DNA of 64,000 nucleotides from Scenedesmus sp. PABB004. Taxonomy: Eukaryota. The position numbers and the translations under genes are program-made. How positions within the stretch are numbered: position 1 is the first letter of the stretch; each line of letters opens with the position of its first letter. The stretch spans positions 1,240,001 to 1,304,000 of the forward strand of contig JABVCE010000009.1 of assembly GCA_014905635.1 (NCBI GenBank), written 5' to 3'. The notes beneath the pieces were generated by a model. It had not been told where the DNA came from. It worked only from the letters and a program-made list of their open reading frames with translations, and searched no databases. Below are positions 23,238 to 33,631 of the stretch, piece by piece.

Positions 23238-25742
23238 TCAGCTGAACCACACGTCGCGCTGGTAGCGCCCCGCCGACGCGAGGCCGTCCAGGTAGGCCCG
23301 CGCCGCGCCCGCGTCGGCCCCGCCGCCCGGCAGGCGCGCGGCGATGACCTCCAGCAGCGCCGCCTCCACCGCGCCCGCCATCGCGTTGGCGTCGCCGCAC
23401 ACGTAAAAGTGGCCGCCCTCCTCCAGCGCGGCCCACACCGCGTCGCCCTGCTCGCGCAGGCGCTGCTGCACATACACCTTGGCCGGCCCCGCCCGGCTGA
23501 ACGCGGTGTGCAGCTGAATCGCGCCCGCCTCGGCCCACGCGGTGAGCTGGCCGCCGTACAGGAAGTCCTGGTCGGGGCGGCGGCAGCCAAAGAAGAGCAG
23601 CATGCGCCCCGGCGCGGCGCCGCCCGCGCCGCCGGCGGCGAGGCGGTGCGCGACAAAGGCGCGGAACGGCGCGAGCCCCGTGCCCGGGCCGACCATGACC
23701 AGTGGCGTGGCCGGGTCGGGCGGCAGGCGGAAGTCTGGGTTGCGGCTCACAAACACCGGCAGCACGCCCCCCGCCGCCGTGCGCTCGCCGACCTGGCTCG
23801 ACGCGACGCCGACGCGGGGCGCGCCGAGGCTCTCGTACCGCACGACCGCGATCGTCGCCTGCACGGCCGCGCCGACCGGCGCCGCCTCGAGCGGCGAGCT
23901 GCTGATGGAGTAGAGCCGCGGCGCGAGCGGCCGCAGCGCCGGCAGCAGCTGCGCGAGGTGCGAGGGGGGGGGGGGGGCGCGGCGGGCGGCGGGCGCGCGT
24001 CGGTGGACCGGGCTGGCGCGGCCGGGCGCGCGCGGGCCTCGCGCTGCGCGGCGCGCCGCGCCGCGCCGCGCCGCGCCGCGCCGCGCCGCGCCTGCTCGTG
24101 GTTGAGGCGTGCGGCGTCAAAGTCGGTCAGCACGTCGACCACGTGCCGCGGCGCGAGGTACGCCTCCAGCGCGGCCGCGTCGCCCAGCAGACCCCGCGCC
24201 GCGTCGAGCGCCGCGCGCAGCTTGCAGCCGCCGTCCGGCGCCTGCGCGCCGCCGGGCGCCGCGCCGGCGCCGGCGCCGCCCGTGCTCGCGTCGGCGGTCA
24301 CCTCGATGGACCGCCGCGCGGGGGCGCGCTTGGCGCCCGGGGCCGCCTCCAGCGCCGCCTCGAGCGCGGCCACGAGCGCGGCCAGCAGCGGGGCGGGCTT
24401 GGGCGCGCGGAGGTCGTAGGCCACGCTGAGCGCGTGGCGCAGCGTCAGCGCGCCCTCGCCCGCCGCGCCGGCGGCGGGGACGTGCTCCTGGTCCTCCGCG
24501 TAGTGCCAGGCGGGGCGCGGCACCGGCTCGTCGCCGCGCGCGCGCAGCGCGCCCAGCAGCGCGTCCACGCCGGCCGGCGGGTTGGTCGGCCAGATGCCGA
24601 GTGCGTCGCCGGGCACATAGTCCAGCCCGCCCTCGGCGGCGGCGGCGGGGTCGAGCGCCAGCTCCAGGCGCACCGTGTCCTTGTCGTCGGGGCCGTCCAG
24701 CACGCACAGCCCCTCCACGCCGACCACGCGCGCGTAGTAGGGCCGAGACTTGTTCCACCGCCGCGACGCCGCCGCGGCGGCCGCCGCGGCCGCCTCGCCG
24801 CCGGCGTCGTCGGGCACGCCGCCGCGCTGCGCGTAGCTGGCGAGGCCGAGGCCGGGCAGGCCGGCCAGCACGGCGTCGATCCAGGCGTCCACCACGGGCC
24901 AGTCCTCCTTGTCCACGTCCACGCGCGGCACAAACGCGCCGCCGCCGGCCGCGCCGAGCGCCGCGTCCAGCGCCTTGCCGCACGCCGCAAAGTGCGTGTA
25001 CGAGGTGTCGCCGAGCGCGCACACGCTGTAGCGCAGCCCCCCGAGCTGCCCCGGCCCGCCGGCGGTGAGCCAGTCGCAGAACTCGCGCGCCTCGGTCGGC
25101 GGCACGCCGTCGCCCTGCGTGGAGAAGACCAGCAGCGCCGCCTGCTGCGCCGACAGGTCGAGCCCGCTCGGGTGGTGCGCGGCGTTGGCGAGCGTCGGCC
25201 TGCGGCGCGGCGCGGCGCCCGCGGTCACGGCCTGCGCCGCGCCCTCCGCACAGCGCCGCCGCGGGGCCCGCGCGCTGCGCCGCATGCTGTGTGGTCTGCG
25301 CGCGGCCGCACCAGAACTGCCCGCCCTGCTTGAGCGCGGCGGCCAGCTTCTCCGCGATCTCCCGCGCGAAGCCGTACTCCGTGCCGTACAGCACCAGCAC
25401 CGGCGCCGCGTCGGCGGGGATCACCTCGCGCGGCGGCGCCGGCGCGGCCGCCGCCACTGGCGCCGCTCCGGCGCCGTCGCCGCCCGCGGGGGCGCGCAGG
25501 AAGGCCGCAAAGTCGGTCGCCGCCGGCGCCGGCGGCGCCACGCGGAGGAAGGACTCGAAGCTCGTGGCCGGCGGGCCCGCGGGGCCGGCGGGGCCGGCGG
25601 GCGCCGGCGGCGCGCGCAGGAAGGCATCAAAGTTGGTCGCCGCCGGCGCGCCGGCGCCGCGCGGCCGGGACAGCAGCCACAGCCCGCCCACGCCGGCGAC
25701 GGCCGCGCCGCCCAGCAGCCAGGAGCCGCGCCCGCCCTCCAT
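23238..25742 (-). CDS. Diflavin (FMN/FAD/NADPH) reductase, sulfite-reductase flavoprotein CysJ-like, with N-terminal membrane anchor
   Basis: Flavodoxin LYGTEYGFAREIA, STQGDGVPPTEA, ALGDTSYTHFAACGK; FNR-like RLYSISSS, VGPGTGLAPFRAF, LFFGCR, YVCGDANAM, RYQRDVW. Confidence 0.9.
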
Positions 25743-26214: not shown

Positions 26215-29200
26215 ATGGCCCGGGGCTTCCTGGCGCGCGCGGCGCGCATCATGGGTCCGGCGTTCCTCGTCTCCGTGGCGTACATGGACCCCGGCAACCT
26301 GGGCGCCGCGATCGAGGCGGGCTCGCGCCACGGCTACCAGCTGGTGTGGGTGGTGGTGCTGTCCAACCTGATCGCCATCCTGCTGCAGACGCTGGCGGCG
26401 CGCCTGGGGCTGGTCACGGGCAAGCACCTCGCGCAGGTCTGCCGCGAGGCGTACCCGCCGGCCGTGTGCCTGCTGCTGTGGGTGCTGTGCGAAATCTCAA
26501 TCGTCGCGCTCGACCTCACCATGGTCCTCGGTGAGACCACCCTCCGGACGGGGGCAGACGGGCAGGCGCCGCGCCGCCGTGCTGCCGCCCGGCCGCGCCG
26601 AGCGCTGCCGCCGCGGCGCGCCGCAGGCACCGCGATCGGGCTCAACCTGCTGCTCGGCTGGCGCATGCTGCCCTGCATCCTCCTCACCGGCCTCGACGCG
26701 CTGCTGCTGCTGCTCCTCGTGCCGCGGTGCGCAGCGGCCGCCGCGGGCGCAGCCGGGGGCCGGGGCGCCGCGGCCTGCCCACGCGCGGCGGCGGCGGCGC
26801 GCCCCGCCCGTGCGCGCGCAGGCAGGGCGTGCGCAGCAGCGAGCAGGTGACGGTCGGCCTGCTGGTCATGGTGCTCGGGTGCTTTGCTGTCGACCTGGTG
26901 CTCTCCAAGCCGCCCCTGCGCGCGGTGCTGGGCGGCCTCGTGCCGCGCCTGAGCGCCGACAGCGTCTACGCCGCCGTCTGCCTGCTCGGCGCCAACGTGA
27001 TGCCACACAACTTCTTTTTGGTGCGGGGCGCCACCCCCGCCCAGCAGCAGCACCGGCGGCACCCGCGCGGCGCCGGCCGGCGGGGCGCCGCGCGCCCCCG
27101 CGCGGCGCCCGCGCGCTCACCGCAGCGGCCGCCCCGCTCCTTCCTCCTGCCGCCGCTGCCGCCGCAGCACTCTGCGCTCGTGGCGGGGCAGGCGCGCGGC
27201 GCGGCGAGCACGAGCCTGCGGCGCCTCTGCCTGTACAACTTCCTGGACATCGCCGCGGCGCTGGGGCTCGCGCTCGTGGTCAACGTCGCGGTGCTGCTCG
27301 TCGCCGCGGCGACCTTCCACCAGGCCGGTGCGCCGCCGCCGCGCGGCGCGCCGCGCGCAGCGCGCAGCGCGGGCGGCCGGCGGCGCCCGCGGCAGCCGCC
27401 CGCGGCCGCCGACGCTGTCAAGCCTGCCCACCCGATCACGCCCGCCCGCCCGCGTCAGGCATCGTGGTTGAGACGCTGCAGGCCGCGCACGACCTCATGG
27501 AGCGCATCCTCTCCAGCAGCGCCGCGCCCGCGGCGTTTGGCCTCGCCCTGCTCTGCGCGGGGCAGCTCAGCACCTTCACCGGGACCATCGCGGGGCAGGT
27601 CGTGCTGCGCGGCTTCCTCGGCGTGCGCCTGCCCACGTGGCTGCGCCGCGTTGCGACGCGCGGCGCGGCGGTGCTGCCCGCGGCGCTGCTGCAATACCAC
27701 GGCGGCGACGCGGCGACCTACCGGTGCGGGGCGGGCGCGGCGGCGTCGGGGGTGCCGCCGCCCCGAGCCGCGCCGCGCTGCACCCGCGCCGCGCCGCCGT
27801 TCGCCACCGCTGCGCCTTGCCCCGCGCCCCACGCACGCGCACCCACCCGCCCGCGCGCGCAGGTTCCTGCTGGTCGCGCAGGTGGTGCTCGCGCTGCAGC
27901 TGCCCTTCACGCTCATCCCGCTCATCAAGGCCACCAGCAGCGCCCGCCTCATGGGCAGCCACCGCAGCAGCGCGGCGCTGGCGGCCGCGGCCTGGGCCGC
28001 GAGCGCCCTCGTGTTCACAGCAAACCTGCTGCTCTTCGCCGCGCAGCTCGCGCCCGGCGCGGCGCTCGTGCCGCCCGTCAGCGCCGGCGGTGCGCGCCGC
28101 GGCGTGCGCGGCGCAGCGCAGCGCGCACGGCATGGCGCGGCGCGTCGCCCTCGGCGCGGCGCCGACGCCCCCCGCGCTGCGCCGCCCCGCCCCGCCGCCG
28201 CCGCCGGTGGCCAGGCCCCGACTCTGCCGCGCACCAGTACCTGGACAACCTGGCTGGCCTCGCGTGGGCGCGCCCCGGGCGCTTCCTGCTGCTGCTCGCG
28301 CTGCTGCTGGCGGCGGCGGGGCTGCTCGCGCTGCAGCTGTGGATGCTGCTGACGCCGCTGTCAGACGCCATCGCGCCAGCGCCGCTCATCGTGGCGCACG
28401 GCAACGAGCGCGGCGCGCGCGCGAGCGGCAAGGCCGGCGCCGGCGCCGGCGACGGACGCGCGTCGCGGCACGTGACGCTGGGCTGGAGCGTGCCGGGCGT
28501 GCGCGAGTGGCTGCTGGGCACGCCGGCGGACGACCTCGGCGGCGCGGCGCCGCGGCACGGGCTCGACGAGGCGGTAAGCGGCTGGCCAGGGGGAGGCTGG
28601 CCGGGGGAGAGCGCACGGGGCGCGGGGCGACGGGGGGGGGGGGGAGGGGGGGGCTGGGGCGCGGCGCCGACGGCGCGCGTGGCCGTGCTGCCGCGCAGGT
28701 GGGCTGGCCCAGTGCGCTCGAGCTGGCGGCGCACAGCCGGCCGGCGGCGGTCGCGCACCGCCACCCCGGCCACACCGCGGCGGAGCAGGCCTTTGGCGGT
28801 CGCGGCGCGCAGCAGCAGAGCGGCAGCGAGGCGGGCGAGGCGCAGCCGCTGCTGCCGCTGGAGCCGCAAACGCCCTCGGACAGCGGCGCGGCCGCCTCGG
28901 AGGGGCCTCAAGAGCAGCCGGCGGCGCAGTGCGGCCAGCCGGGCAGCCCCGCCACCGCAAAGCAGGCAGCGGCGCAGGCGGCGGCGCGCGCGCTGGAGCA
29001 GCAGCAGCAGCAGCAGCGCGAGCTGGAGTGCGAGCAGGAGCAGGAGCAGGAGCGAGAGCGGGAGCGGGAGCGGGAGCAGGAGCAGGAGGGGGAGCAGGCG
29101 GGCGCTGCCGCGTCGTGGGATGAGATGGACCTGGACAGCTTCACGCTCAGCGCCCACAGCGCCCACAGCGCCCACGGCGGCCACGGTGGCCTCGGCAGCG

Positions 29201-30713
29201 CGGCGGCGCAGCCGTCGTCGCCGCATGCGAGCAGCGAGGCCGCCAGCTACGCCCAGCTGGGCGCGGACAGGGAGGTCTGGCTGGACGCGTGGCCGGCGGC
29301 CCCTGCGCCGCCCAGCCCGCGCAGCCCCAGCTGGCGCGGCGCCTCGCTGTCGCGCGCCAGCAGCAGCGACGCCAGCAGCCTGAGCGCCCTCACGGGCGCG
29401 TCACAGCAGCAGCGCGCCGCGCGCGCGCCGGCCGCCCCCGCCGGCGGCGCCCGGGCGCTCGCGGCGCGGCCCGGCGCCGCGGCCGGCGCCGCCGGCGGCG
29501 GCGGTCGGAGCGGCGCCGGCAGCGGCGGCAGCAGCAACAGCAGCCTGTCCAAGGGTGGCCGCCGTGCGCTCGCGGCCGGCCTGGACGCGTTTTGGGGGAC
29601 CTATTTTGACAGCCACGGCGGCTGGGTCGGCGACGCGGCGGCGGCGCCGCGCGGCGGCAGCAGCGGCAGCGCGCAGCACGCGCGCAAGCGCCCGCCGCCC
29701 GGCAGCGCGTGCTGCAGATGCGGCGGTGCAGCGGCGGGCGGTGGCGGCGGCGCCCCGGGGCGGGCGTGGTGCTGCAGCTGCGCGATGGCCTTACTGCAGC
29801 ACGTCCAGGACTGCGTGAGCGAGCTGCTGGAGGTGCCGGGCGCGGCGCAGGTGCTCACGCCCGCGAGCGTGCTCGGCGCGCCGCCCGCGCCGGCCGCCGG
29901 CGACGGCGGCGAGCAGCCGGCCGCCACGGCGTGCGGCCTGCTGCTGGCGGACGCGTGGGCCCAGCTGCCGGCGCCGCTGGCGGCGACGCTGCGGTCCGTG
30001 CTGCCAGCGGCGGCGGGCGGGACGCTGATCGACGCGGTGCTCGCCACACGCGCCGACTGGCAGGCAGCGCCCGAGCCGGCGGCCGCGCCGGCGTGCGGCG
30101 CCACTGCACCCGGCATGGGCGCGTCGGCAGCGCTGTGTGCGGCCGCGCCGCGCGTGCTCGCGGGGTGGGGCGCGTGGTGCGTGGTCGTGCTGCTCGTGCT
30201 GGGGAGCTGCGAGGTGAGGCCGGAGCTGTGGGGCCGCATCGCCGCGGTGCTCAACCGCCTGCAGGGCGTGCTCACCGACGTCGCGGGCGGCGGCGGCAGC
30301 GGCAGCGGCGGCAGCGGGAGCGGCGGCGGCAGCGGCGGCGGCGGCGGCGAGCAGCAGCAGCTGTCGGCGCTGCTGCTCGCGCTGCTGCAGCAGCTGGAGG
30401 TCGCGGTGGCGGGCAGGGCGTCGCCGGGGGCGCCGGCGGCCCCGGCGCCGCGTTTGCCAAGGGCAGGGAGATCACTGCGGGCGTGGTCAAGCGCTACCGG
30501 CGCCGCCTCGCAGGCCCCGGCGCCAGCGCCAGCGGCGGCCACCGGCCGCGCCCGCCGCCGGGGCACCGCGCGGCGCTGGCCCTGGTGCTAGGCGGGCTGA
30601 TGGTGGCCGCGCCCCTGATGCTCGGGGGCTGCTGCTCGGGCGCCGGCGGCGGCCTGAGCGGCTGCAGGGCGGCGTGGCTGCGGCGCGGCAGCGCGGTCCT
30701 CCTCGCGCGCTGA
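26215..30713 (+). CDS. EIN2: NRAMP transporter fused to an EIN2-like C-terminal domain; 8 exons (26215-26530, 26627-26726, 26822-27020, 27168-27327, 27459-27723, 27863-28089, 28215-28573, 28699-30713) with a probable 1-nt indel at 30426-30430
   Basis: NRAMP: GPAFLVSVAYMDPGN, GANVMPHNFFL|HS, STFTGTIAGQVVLRGFL, QVVLALQLPFTLIPL. EIN2-type tail: GRRALAAGLDAFWGTYFDSHG, WGAWC..RPELWGRIAAVLNRLQG, LEVAV..AFAKGREITAGVVKRYRRRL. Confidence 0.88.
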
Positions 30714-30956: not shown

Positions 30957-33230
30957 TCAGGTGTCGCTGAAGATGGCGTAGATGTCATCGCCCTCCCCCG
31001 GCAGCGCCACCAGGTCGGCCAGCTCCAGCGCGCCCATCGGGTCGTCCTCGCCGCCGCCCGCGCCGCCGGCGCCGCCGGCCGCGGCCGCGGCGCCCGCGCC
31101 GCCCGGCGGCGACGCGACCGCGGCGGGGTGGCGAGGCCCGGCGTGCTGGCCACGGCGCGCGGCGACGCGCCCGCGCCGCCGCCGGCCCCCGGCGGCGCCT
31201 TGGCTGCGGGGCTGGTCGCGGCGCCGCCCTTGCTGCCCGCGCCCGTCACGCTGCCCAGCTCAGCCGTGCCCGAGCCGGCCGCGGGCACGGCCGGCGCGGC
31301 GGCCGCGCCCCGGGCGCGCCGGCGGCGCCGGCGACGCCGTTGAGCGGCGGCGACCGCGCCGCGGCGACCGCAACCTCCAGCGCCGAGCTGCTGCCGGACG
31401 GCGGCGCGGAGGGCGGGGGCGGCGCGCCGCCGGGGTGCGGCGGCAGCGCCGACGACACGGCCTCCTGGCCCGCCGCGCCCGCGCCGCCCGTGCCCGCCGA
31501 CGCGGGCGTGTGCATGCTGCTGATGGGCGACTCGTGGTACACGCGCGCCAGCGCACCGCCAGGGACGCCCTCCGCATGTGGCGGCGGCGGCGGCGGCACG
31601 TGCTGCCCGTTTGGCAGCTGCGCCGTCGGGGCCGCGGGCGCCGGCGCGGCGGCGGCATCCCACCGGCTGCGGCGGCCGGCGGGCGCCGCGCTGCCGCCGC
31701 CCGGCGCGGCGCCGGCAGGCGGCGCCGGCGCCGGCGCAGCCACCGGCCCCAGGCCGGGCGGCAGCGGCCCCCACGCGGGCAGCTGCGGCGGCGCCGGGCG
31801 GGGCTGCGCTGCGCCGGGGGCTGGCGAGCCCGAGGCGCTGCCCGCCGCGCCCGGCGCCGCCTCGCTGCTGGGGCTCGTGCCCGCGGGCTGCGGCGGCGGC
31901 GGCATCTTGAGGTTGCGCCCGAAGCGCAGCCGGCTGGCGCGGCCGCCGTGGGTGGGGGAGTCGTCCAGGCCGGGCAGCGCCGCGCCGCCCTGCTGCAGCT
32001 GCGGCATGAGGCCAAACAGCGGCAGCCCTGGCGCTGCCGGCGGCGGCGGCGGCGGCTGCGGCTGGGCGTGCGCAAACGCGAGGCCCCCCTGCTGCTGCGG
32101 AGGCGGCTGCTGGGCCTGCTGCTGCGACTGCGACTGCGGCACGCCCACCGGCCACTGCGCTGCGGGATGCTGCTGGGCGTACAGCGGCCAGCCCGCCTGC
32201 TGCGGTTGCTGCGGCTGCTGCACCTGCTGCCCCTGCTGCGCCTGCACCTGATGCGCCTGCACGCCGCCGTGCCAGGGCGGCGGCACGACTGCGGCGGCTG
32301 GCGCCCCAGCGGCAACGGCCGCGACCGCCACCGCCGCCGGCGGCGGCGGCGGCGTGCTGCGGGCCGCAGCAGCCGCCGCCGGCAGCCCGAAGCGCGCGCG
32401 GGGGTCTGACGGGACCGCCGTGCCCGGCGCCGCCGGGGCGCCGGCCGCCGCCGCGGGCTGCGGCGCGGGCGGGGCCGCGCCGCCGCGCAGCGCGTCGGCA
32501 GCAAAGGGGTCGTAGTCGCGGCCGCCGTCAGCGCCCGCGCCCGCGGCAGCCGCCCGCTCGCCCTCTGCGGGGCCGTCCGCCGGCTGCGGGGCGCGCGGCC
32601 ACGGGGGCGGGCGCGGCGGGTAGGGTCGGGCGGGCGGGCCGCGCTGCAGTGCGCCGGCCGGGCGGGCAGCCGCCGCTGCCGCCGCACCCGCTTGGCCGGC
32701 GTGAGCGCGCCCGCCTGCACGTAGCCCAGCGCGCCCGCTGCCGGCGGCGTGGGTGTGCGCGCGCCGCGCCGCTGGTGGTGCTCGCCGCCGCCGCCGCCGG
32801 CCGCGCCGCGCAGCTCCGCCGGCAGCTTTGCCTCGCACGCGTCGACCTGCGCGCCCGTGAGCACGCCCTCTGCGCGCCAGCTCGCGAGCAGCTTGGCCAG
32901 GGCGGGTCCCTCGTCCGCCGGCAGGCCCTCGCCGAGCGCCTCAAACATGCCCGGCAGCAGCGGGCCAAACCGCTCGCCGTACTTGGAGCGGGCCTTGAGC
33001 GCCCGCCGCGCGCCGCGCAGCACCTTGCCCACGCCGTACATCACGTGCAGCCGCGCCAGTCCCGGCGGCGCGTGGCGCAGCGCGCGCTCCATGAGCGCGG
33101 GCGCCGCCTTGTAGCACGTCGCGTGGTCCTCGACCGCGATCGCCGCCAGGCCGTCCAGCGCCGACTTGCTGGCCTTCTTGGCGCACTTTGCCAGCAGCGC
33201 CTTGAACTCGGCCTCCCGCTCCCACACCAT
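30957..33230 (-). CDS. CID (RNA pol II CTD-interacting) domain protein with Pro/Gln-rich tail; two probable 1-nt indels near 31310 and 31127
   Basis: EFKALL..ASKSALDGLAAIAVED..CYK..RLHVMYGVGKVLR..KYGERF..KLLASWRAEGVL; RRSRWD motif; acidic end DDIYAIFSDT*. Confidence 0.72.
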
Positions 33231-33631
33231 GGCTCTCGGGCGATCCGCCGCCGCTGCGCTGCTGCGCCGCCGCTGCTGCGCGCGCCGCCACACTGCTGGT
33301 CGCCGCCGACCAGCGGGGACGCGAGGCGCAAGCCGCAGCTCCGCGGGCACCGCCGCCGGGCGGAGGGCTGTGGCGGACGCCGGCGGCCGGCGGCAGGCAT
33401 CAAAAGTCGCGCGGCCCCGAACCCGCGCTAACAACCGTCGCAGCTGGCCCGCGCCGCCGCAGACCGGCATCGGGTCTCACTTAGCGTGCCCTCGCCGGGC
33501 GGGGCAGCGGCGGCGGCAGCACCCCGCGGCGCACGCCGCTGCGGACGGCGGCGCGTGCCTGCGCCGGCAGCGGGCCAACAGCCTCGCCGGCAGCTGCAGC
33601 CGTTCACCCGTGACCCTCCCAGTCTCCGGCC

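Follow-up and report, generated by a model that had tools for sequence, protein, structure and literature searches.

The EIN2 proteins of streptophytes (Arabidopsis AT5G03280 and, in PMC12290401, those of Marchantia, Physcomitrium, Chara and Spirogloea) have an NRAMP domain in the membrane and, C-terminal to it, a long tail, mostly of low complexity, in which the EIN2 C-terminal domain (CEND) is found. A 2023 review stated that chlorophyte genomes appear to lack EIN2 homologues and dated EIN2 to the streptophyte algae (PMC10518463), the tail has been called plant-specific and conserved from charophytes onward (PMC10452086), and a search with Arabidopsis domains reported absence from 'most' chlorophyte lineages (2024 preprint). 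The gene described here lies at 26215-30713 on the forward strand of a 64,000 nucleotide stretch of DNA, referred to below as the window, from the green alga Scenedesmus sp. PABB004 (contig JABVCE010000009.1, positions 1,240,001 to 1,304,000). We read it, with a probability of about 0.85, as the Scenedesmus EIN2 orthologue, in which NRAMP and CEND are encoded by one gene; its most likely origin is vertical descent from an ancestor predating the chlorophyte-streptophyte split. This reading includes predicted transport of Mn2+/Fe2+, a helical regulatory or scaffold tail that would be tethered at both ends, and the interpretation of a one-base frame slip as an assembly error. A preliminary description, made from the DNA sequence alone, had held that chlorophytes are credited with plain NRAMPs only, which is also the position of the 2023 review. 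In the literature searched there was no description of an EIN2-type tail in a chlorophyte.

Chlamydomonas Cre07.g315200 was named 'EIN2-like' (CrEIN2L) and used as an outgroup in PMC12290401, without comment on its tail in the part of that paper available, and was called NRM3 in PMC3772215. The word 'undescribed' in the proposal of an EIN2-type signalling module was therefore too strong, and 'signalling' describes a putative role; what is new here is a further member of the EIN2 family, partly anticipated in print by the name of the Chlamydomonas gene. XP_001700793.1 (P0070) was assumed to be the product of the same gene as Cre07.g315200. We also take RET1 ('related to EIN2') to be an older Chlamydomonas name, which our literature searches did not find.

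Homology of the tail to EIN2

The tail was searched by itself with phmmer, using 307 residues (29500-30420) and no NRAMP sequence, against 1.84 billion representative proteins. This revealed 66 proteins at E<=1e-3, of which three reached E<=1e-10. An Nramp domain was present N-terminal of the match in 40/66 (21/33 and 19/33), the other 26 being mostly short fragments, while an RPELWG-type motif was found in 58/66 and a KRYRRRL-type motif in 24/66. To obtain names, the NRAMP region was used as a query as well; its 104 matches had six proteins in common with the tail-only list; two of these were Logan rows and the four named streptophytes were Spirogloea muscicola SM000027S09592, Sphagnum compactum, Diphasiastrum complanatum and Riccia sorocarpa. 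The Spirogloea protein (tail-only phmmer E 1.9e-08) is SmuEIN2 in a 2025 paper (PMC12290401). When the tail exon was compared with SM000027S09592 by BLASTP, two matches in colinear order were obtained, with 24/46 identical residues (59.3 bits, E 6e-13) and 25/47 identical residues (42.7 bits, E 8e-08).

A streptophyte profile made from the tails of 11 named proteins was compared with all 690 six-frame open reading frames (ORFs) of at least 30 amino acids in the window, which served as composition-matched decoys. It matched 2/690, and the two are frames of this gene, one at 27472-30588 (E 1.7e-12) and the other at 29610-30710 (E 0.019), the latter through the block that corresponds to the putative nuclear localisation signal (NLS) of EIN2. 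Three blocks were colinear in the profile, at positions 234-321, 769-815 and 901-948. Additionally, an hhalign comparison of nine chlorophyte-clade tails, with the window sequence excluded, to the 11 streptophyte tails showed a probability of 99.8% (E 2.7e-30) over 147 columns. The tail alone thus resembles EIN2 in the phmmer, profile and BLASTP comparisons, and the tails of its relatives do so in hhalign.

Chance or shared composition in a genome of 80% GC would be another explanation of this likeness. The GC content of the window is 74-83% throughout and all frames are open, so that ORF lists say little; the tail exon contains 23% Ala and 15% Gly, and the bias terms of the profile scores are high. 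Against this, only the two frames of this gene matched among the 690 decoys, the Nramp domain that accompanies 40/66 of the tail matches was absent from the query, and the hhalign result was obtained without the window sequence. Unless the database, decoy and hhalign results are themselves artefacts, they would already refute an origin of the likeness by chance, which we regard as scarcely credible.

Other searches with the tail gave no usable match. Word-indexed searches (307 amino acids and 56 amino acids; database of 5.8e9) returned only the protein itself, which, given low-complexity words and short scores, is no evidence of absence, and no Pfam family was found for the tail pieces. ESM Atlas matches (0.77-0.78, Est1-type clusters) were rejected because shuffled proteins reach that level, and a match to a 'Tet4 Variant' sequence in the PDB was rejected as spurious, as it fell on the Gly/Ser run 1071-1111.

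Conserved blocks of the tail

The blocks shared with streptophyte EIN2 occur in the same order, namely GRR..LD.FWG..FD.HG, C..LL.LEG, FG.WC...RPELWG....LNRLQG, VE.AV and AF.KG.E....KRY.RRL (Table 1). Reading the DNA again upheld the coordinates and residues that had been given for them. Block WGAWCVVVLLVLGSCEVRPELWGRIAAVLNRLQGVL is the best-conserved portion of the EIN2 C-terminal domain, and in an alignment of 41 sequences the columns W226, R240, P241, W244, G245, L251, N252, L254 and Q255 were at least 90% conserved. The LLQ..C..LL.[EP]G block lined up with its streptophyte counterpart in a MAFFT alignment of 18 tails. A Ser-rich stretch, SSNSSLSKGGRR, aligned with GSLSrlSgLGRaARR of the streptophyte profile. 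The Arabidopsis CTR1 phosphorylation sites presumably fall in this Ser-rich stretch.

Block AFAKGREITAGVVKRYRRRL showed 21/38 identical residues to the algal relative P0076 (E 2e-10) and 16/31 to Marchantia paleacea (E 4e-06), and corresponds to positions 901-948 of the streptophyte profile. It contains VKRYRRRL (30483-30506), which joins the frame of the tail only after a one-base correction. The basic motif LKRYKRRL near the C terminus of EIN2 is worded as a putative NLS in PMC12290401.

The algal protein differs from streptophyte EIN2 in its chlorophyte host, in its Ala/Gly/Gln-rich linkers and in that no LID.V block can be recognised. A tail linker contains a CAG/GAG codon run (28990-29095) that encodes QQQQQQRELECEQEQEQEREREREREQEQEGEQ.

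The tail had been called soluble; it is not wholly so, as it ends in a hydrophobic segment of 19 residues at 30570-30626. Similar hydrophobic ends after the NLS-like motif were found in P0076 and P0081 (both algal), Riccia, Marchantia and Ceratodon, so that liverwort and moss EIN2-type proteins share this end with the alga, whereas the tracheophyte-like rows are without it. It could be a tail anchor that was lost in higher plants.

NRAMP half and transporter motifs

The membrane domain was identified by Pfam PF01566 (Nramp), which matched exons 1, 3, 4, 5 and 6 colinearly (Table 1). The best solved structure for the membrane core was the bacterial MntH 8e6n, at E 8.9e-72 over residues 8-403, which together with the five Pfam exons substantiates the NRAMP assignment of the preliminary description. 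Bacterial MntH/Nramp proteins (solved: 8e6n, 6d91 and 5kte) have the same membrane core, and the AYMDPGN and GANVMPHNFFLHS motifs of the algal protein are identical in 8e6n, as is the VMPH..LHSAL pattern. Unlike the algal protein, bacterial Nramps are without an EIN2-type tail, and Nramp-Usp fusions carry Usp (PF00582) instead. Among the long proteins from outside green plants that matched the NRAMP half, such Nramp-Usp fusions (P0088-P0164) came closest, with approximately 660 amino acids and 41-52% identity.

In bacterial Nramps, DPGN (helix 1) and MPH (helix 6) supply the metal-binding Asp, Asn and Met. Both DPGN and MPHN were kept in the window protein, in most chlorophyte-clade rows and in liverworts; the exceptions within the chlorophyte clade were three rows without a helix-1 match and Volvox africanus, which reads MPHK. 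The tracheophyte-like rows, in contrast, read DPGK or DLGK and have lost the MPH pattern. By analogy with bacterial Nramps, transport of Mn2+/Fe2+ is therefore predicted to be probably still active in the alga, unlike in its tracheophyte-like relatives. The intact transporter motifs also suggest that the function of EIN2 before ethylene signalling involves metal transport, for which an alga such as Chlamydomonas would offer a tractable system. Two Spirogloea muscicola EIN2 proteins (P0016 / P0165) read GFLNPAA in place of DPGN, on a very long NRAMP branch (2.44).

Algal relatives and descent

The best matches to the NRAMP region were Chlamydomonas reinhardtii XP_001700793.1 (72% identity), Pleodorina starrii, Volvox africanus, Volvox carteri and several transcriptome or metagenome proteins, and most of these proteins have the tail blocks. 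XP_001700793.1 is the nearest named orthologue and has the FWG, RPELWG and NRLQG blocks; it differs from the Scenedesmus protein in belonging to the order Chlamydomonadales, and its model of 1029 amino acids ends ...LERRGPADTAAGEACPAAPLS, before the AF.KG.E/KRY.RRL block of Volvox carteri and Pleodorina. This model is probably truncated or otherwise incomplete. Volvox carteri and Pleodorina read AFPKAKEI.ASVMRRYRR.L in that block, and P0076, the closest relative of the window protein, reads AYAKGKEICISVVKRYRRQL. As both halves are homologous to their EIN2 counterparts and the same fusion is found in named Chlamydomonadales, the earlier proposal of an NRAMP and an EIN2-type C-terminal domain within one chlorophyte gene can be maintained. 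The host is a chlorophyte and not a streptophyte: a word-indexed search with part of the gene product returned an identical record (100%), 'nramp2 [Scenedesmus sp. PABB004]' of 1192 amino acids, and NCBI taxonomy places this organism in the Chlorophyta, Chlorophyceae, Sphaeropleales.

A tree of the NRAMP region (48 rows, including 12 bacterial Nramp-Usp proteins) was made with a quick IQ-TREE run, with support from the Shimodaira-Hasegawa-like approximate likelihood ratio test (SH-aLRT). All NRAMP-CEND proteins formed one clade (100, starred) relative to the outgroup clade of the 12 bacterial proteins. The window protein and P0076 (100, starred) were sister to Chlamydomonas, Pleodorina and Volvox (99, starred), and the clade containing the chlorophytes lay outside a separate embryophyte clade (100, starred). 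The tree fits vertical descent and excludes a recent transfer from land plants, while leaving the deeper history unfixed. Since the Chlamydomonadales have the same fusion, it is most likely ancestral to green plants.

Transfer of the tail, or of the whole gene, from a streptophyte to the ancestor of the Chlorophyceae was the other origin that had been considered. The pattern is patchy in a way that would suit a transfer, with EIN2 reported to be lacking in chlorophytes as well as in those streptophyte algae that branched off first (PMC10518463) and with all named chlorophyte carriers in the dataset belonging to the Chlorophyceae; an ancient transfer from an early streptophyte is compatible with the basal fork of the tree. 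The position of the chlorophyte clade outside the embryophytes argues against it, as does an inner order that equals the species tree, with Sphaeropleales beside Chlamydomonadales. The alga also keeps DPGN and MPHN, as do bacterial Nramps and liverworts, and its top tail matches show no bias to one streptophyte group. Lateral transfer is thus disfavoured and in our view very unlikely, and of the two origins the one before the chlorophyte-streptophyte split is favoured by the Chlamydomonadales orthologues and the tree. With the tail in Scenedesmus, Chlamydomonas, Volvox and Pleodorina, the NRAMP-CEND fusion moves to or before that split and appears older than the reviews state.

Gene model and frame slip

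The gene has a GT-AG structure, with its ATG at 26215. Mapping NCBI protein P0003 back onto the window gave nine exons, and direct reading of the DNA agreed with this model except at the border of exons 6 and 7. An alternative border at 28067/28238 was dropped, and that of NCBI was adopted because the relative P0076 reads GAPDSPLHQYLDNIAG across the junction. The seven introns other than one of 62 nucleotides were 95-147 nucleotides in length. A G-rich tract, cgacgggggggggggagggggggggctgggg, is located at 28621-28649 in intron 7, between exons 7 and 8. The gene model joins both domains, and the transcriptome-derived relatives P0076, P0073, P0074 and P0075 carry both halves in one ORF marked complete.

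Analysis of the GC content at third codon positions (GC3) revealed values of 0.94-1.00 in the frame of exon 8 up to approximately 30439, and then coding-type values (0.90-1.00) in another phase up to the stop codon. The residues before this change (LLALLQQLEVAVAGRA) and those after it (AFAKGREITAGVVKRYRRRL, then the hydrophobic end) are colinear with P0076. The phase switch, together with the colinearity on both sides, indicates that the assembly lacks one base within 30417-30449. The NCBI model restores the frame by a 62-nucleotide intron that removes the conserved AFAKGRE...KRYRRRL block and has coding-type GC3; this intron is probably an artefact, and we read the slip as an assembly error masked by annotation.

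If the slip were real, the gene would instead be a pseudogene or would encode a truncated tail. The slip is present in the deposited assembly, and the NCBI pipeline needed the 62-nucleotide intron to obtain an open frame. On the other side, the coding-type GC3 persists in the new frame to the stop codon, and beyond the slip the protein sequence still resembles that of P0076, in the NLS block (E 2e-10) and then in the hydrophobic end. The slip region also contains a run of five G, and assemblies are well known to miscall homopolymers. A pseudogene or a truncated product is accordingly an improbable alternative to an intact gene with an error in its assembly.

The two public models hide the relationship to EIN2, as that of Scenedesmus splices out the NLS block and that of Chlamydomonas, XP_001700793.1, stops before it. 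Such models may be one reason why searches with Arabidopsis domains miss the EIN2 tail in chlorophytes.

Several points weigh against the identification of the gene as an intact, vertically inherited EIN2 orthologue. The composition bias in the profile scores was heavy (full-sequence score 42.0, bias 33.5), and LIDAV, which had been listed as one of the EIN2 blocks, was not placed opposite the D-E-D/E-L-I block of streptophytes in the MAFFT alignment of 18 tails; its resemblance may be due to chance. In the tree, the basal fork of the four eukaryotic lineages was not resolved and the Spirogloea branch was 2.44. The length filter left the tree without canonical eukaryotic NRAMP1-6/DMT1, so that the place of the EIN2 clade among NRAMPs falls outside its scope. 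That DPGN and MPHN bind the metal is known from structures of bacterial Nramps and applied to the alga by analogy. Relatives and GC3 periodicity are the basis on which a single transcript, its splice sites and the kind of slip are deduced, and a real slip would mean that the NLS-like block is lost or the protein truncated.

Predicted structure and function of the tail

An AlphaFold2 model of the tail (307 residues, 41-row alignment) showed 12 helices, which fall on the conserved blocks, with a mean predicted local distance difference test score (pLDDT) of 76.3 and a predicted template modelling score (pTM) of 0.80. A Foldseek search of this model against the PDB gave 0 matches at E<=1e-3, and the best VIA-align wide match (8toc_a, Z 5.8) was below chance level for helical models, giving no convincing fold match. 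On the basis of the model, the conserved blocks, which are split by low-complexity linkers, would fold into one helical cytosolic domain. This domain would be tethered at both ends, by the transporter and by the hydrophobic C-terminal segment. By analogy, the tail is most likely a membrane-based regulatory or scaffold domain that would link metal or stress status to kinases, a predicted role that differs from that of the ethylene-released nuclear messenger of Arabidopsis.

That the CEND acts at the membrane and independently of EIN3 is supported, for a relative, by the behaviour of moss CEND: according to PMC12290401, its abscisic acid (ABA) function is independent of EIN3, nuclear localisation 'may not be necessary', and CEND-GFP was located at both the endoplasmic reticulum and the nucleus. 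EIN2 was also found in SnRK2 pull-downs from streptophyte algae, according to a 2026 preprint.

Action as in Arabidopsis would require that ethylene leads to dephosphorylation of the tail, which is then cut and carried to the nucleus by its KRYRRRL motif. The alga keeps the Ser-rich GRR...FWG block, the RPELWG/LNRLQG core and the KRYRRRL motif that this would use. However, EIN3 is reported absent from chlorophytes, and ETR is reported there only as candidate or partial homologues (PMC10518463; Draparnaldia, bioRxiv 2024.09.12.612648), and the hydrophobic C-terminal segment would hold a singly cut fragment on the membrane. We therefore consider a released, ethylene-dependent tail possible, quite improbable in itself and less likely than the membrane-based role.

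A tentative scenario, which we hold to be possible and well short of probable, is that EIN2 began before the split as a working Mn/Fe NRAMP transporter whose doubly tethered helical domain informed Raf-like/SnRK2-type kinases of metal or osmotic status. In land plants, transport and the second anchor would later have disappeared and the released tail would have been connected to ETR and EIN3, while the Chlorophyceae would keep the ancestral, ethylene-independent form.

Feature coordinates and neighbouring genes

Table 1. Coordinates in the window of the exons, motifs, tail blocks and frame features of the Scenedesmus sp. PABB004 gene
Feature	Position	Strand	Remarks
Exon 1	26215..26530	+	Start codon and first NRAMP helices; Pfam Nramp E 1.8e-27, profile 3-77; GC3 0.97
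DPGN motif	26287-26298	+	In exon 1; AYMDPGN identical in MntH 8e6n
Exon 2 (NRAMP)	26627..26726	+	Exact P0003 mapping, GT-AG borders; too short for a Pfam match of its own
Exon 3 (NRAMP)	26822..27020	+	Pfam Nramp E 1.5e-16, profile 112-178
MPHN motif GANVMPHNFFLHS	27000-27011	+	In exon 3; motif present
Exon 4 (NRAMP)	27168..27327	+	Pfam Nramp E 6.2e-07, profile 179-230; 29.2 bits against a cut-off of 29.8 bits when scored alone
Exon 5 (NRAMP)	27459..27723	+	Pfam Nramp E 2.7e-18, profile 236-316
Exon 6 (end of NRAMP core)	27863..28089	+	Pfam Nramp E 2.1e-07, profile 322-356
Exon 7	28215..28573	+	Further hydrophobic helix FLLLLALLLAAAGLLALQLWMLL and start of cytosolic tail, from sequence and mapping; no Pfam family
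Exon 8	28699..30430	+	Encodes most of the tail, in a single frame; rich in Ala/Gly/Gln; 4/5 confirmed EIN2-type blocks; HMMER and BLASTP matches to EIN2-type proteins
Block SLSKGGRRALAAGLDAFWGTYFDSHG	29542-29619	+	Aligns to streptophyte consensus LGRaARRqfAaiLdeFWgrlFdlHG; 25/47 identical to Spirogloea EIN2, E 8e-08; AlphaFold2 helix with pLDDT >90
Block LLQHVQDCVSELLEV	29791-29835	+	Aligns with streptophyte vLesLr.Ci.kLL.LEGS.WLF (18-row alignment); AlphaFold2 helix 92-110; support weaker than for the other blocks
Block WGAWCVVVLLVLGSCEVRPELWGRIAAVLNRLQGVL (WGAWC...RPELWG...LNRLQGVL)	30166-30273	+	Top-scoring HMMER domain (37.9 bits, E 3e-11); 24/46 residues identical in Spirogloea EIN2
Block LEVAVAGR	30394-30417	+	Colinear with LELAVADKK in P0076 and EVEaAVGsRKG in the profile-profile alignment
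One-base frame slip	30417..30449	.	GC3 phase change between windows 30350-30439 and 30410-30499; G5 run at 30426-30430
Block AFAKGREITAGVVKRYRRRL	30450-30509	+	Frame differs from the rest of the tail; counterpart of the putative EIN2 NLS
62-nt 'intron' of NCBI model P0003	30452..30513	+	GT-AG; restores frame, removes the conserved AFAKGRE...KRYRRRL block; coding-type GC3 0.90-0.93
C-terminal hydrophobic segment AALALVLGGLMVAAPLMLG	30570..30626	+	19 residues, mean Kyte-Doolittle 2.17; possible tail anchor
Stop codon TGA	30711..30713	+	Read from the DNA

The gene is flanked by two frames on the minus strand. The adjoining frame at 23747-25420 matched Flavodoxin_1 (E 1.6e-14) and, at 24.8 bits and thus under the cut-off of 32.3 bits, FAD_binding_1, which suggests a gene of the diflavin reductase type. 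Downstream, the frame at 31260-33476 matched the CID domain (E 6.9e-07), as would be expected of a protein of the type that interacts with the C-terminal domain (CTD) of RNA polymerase II.

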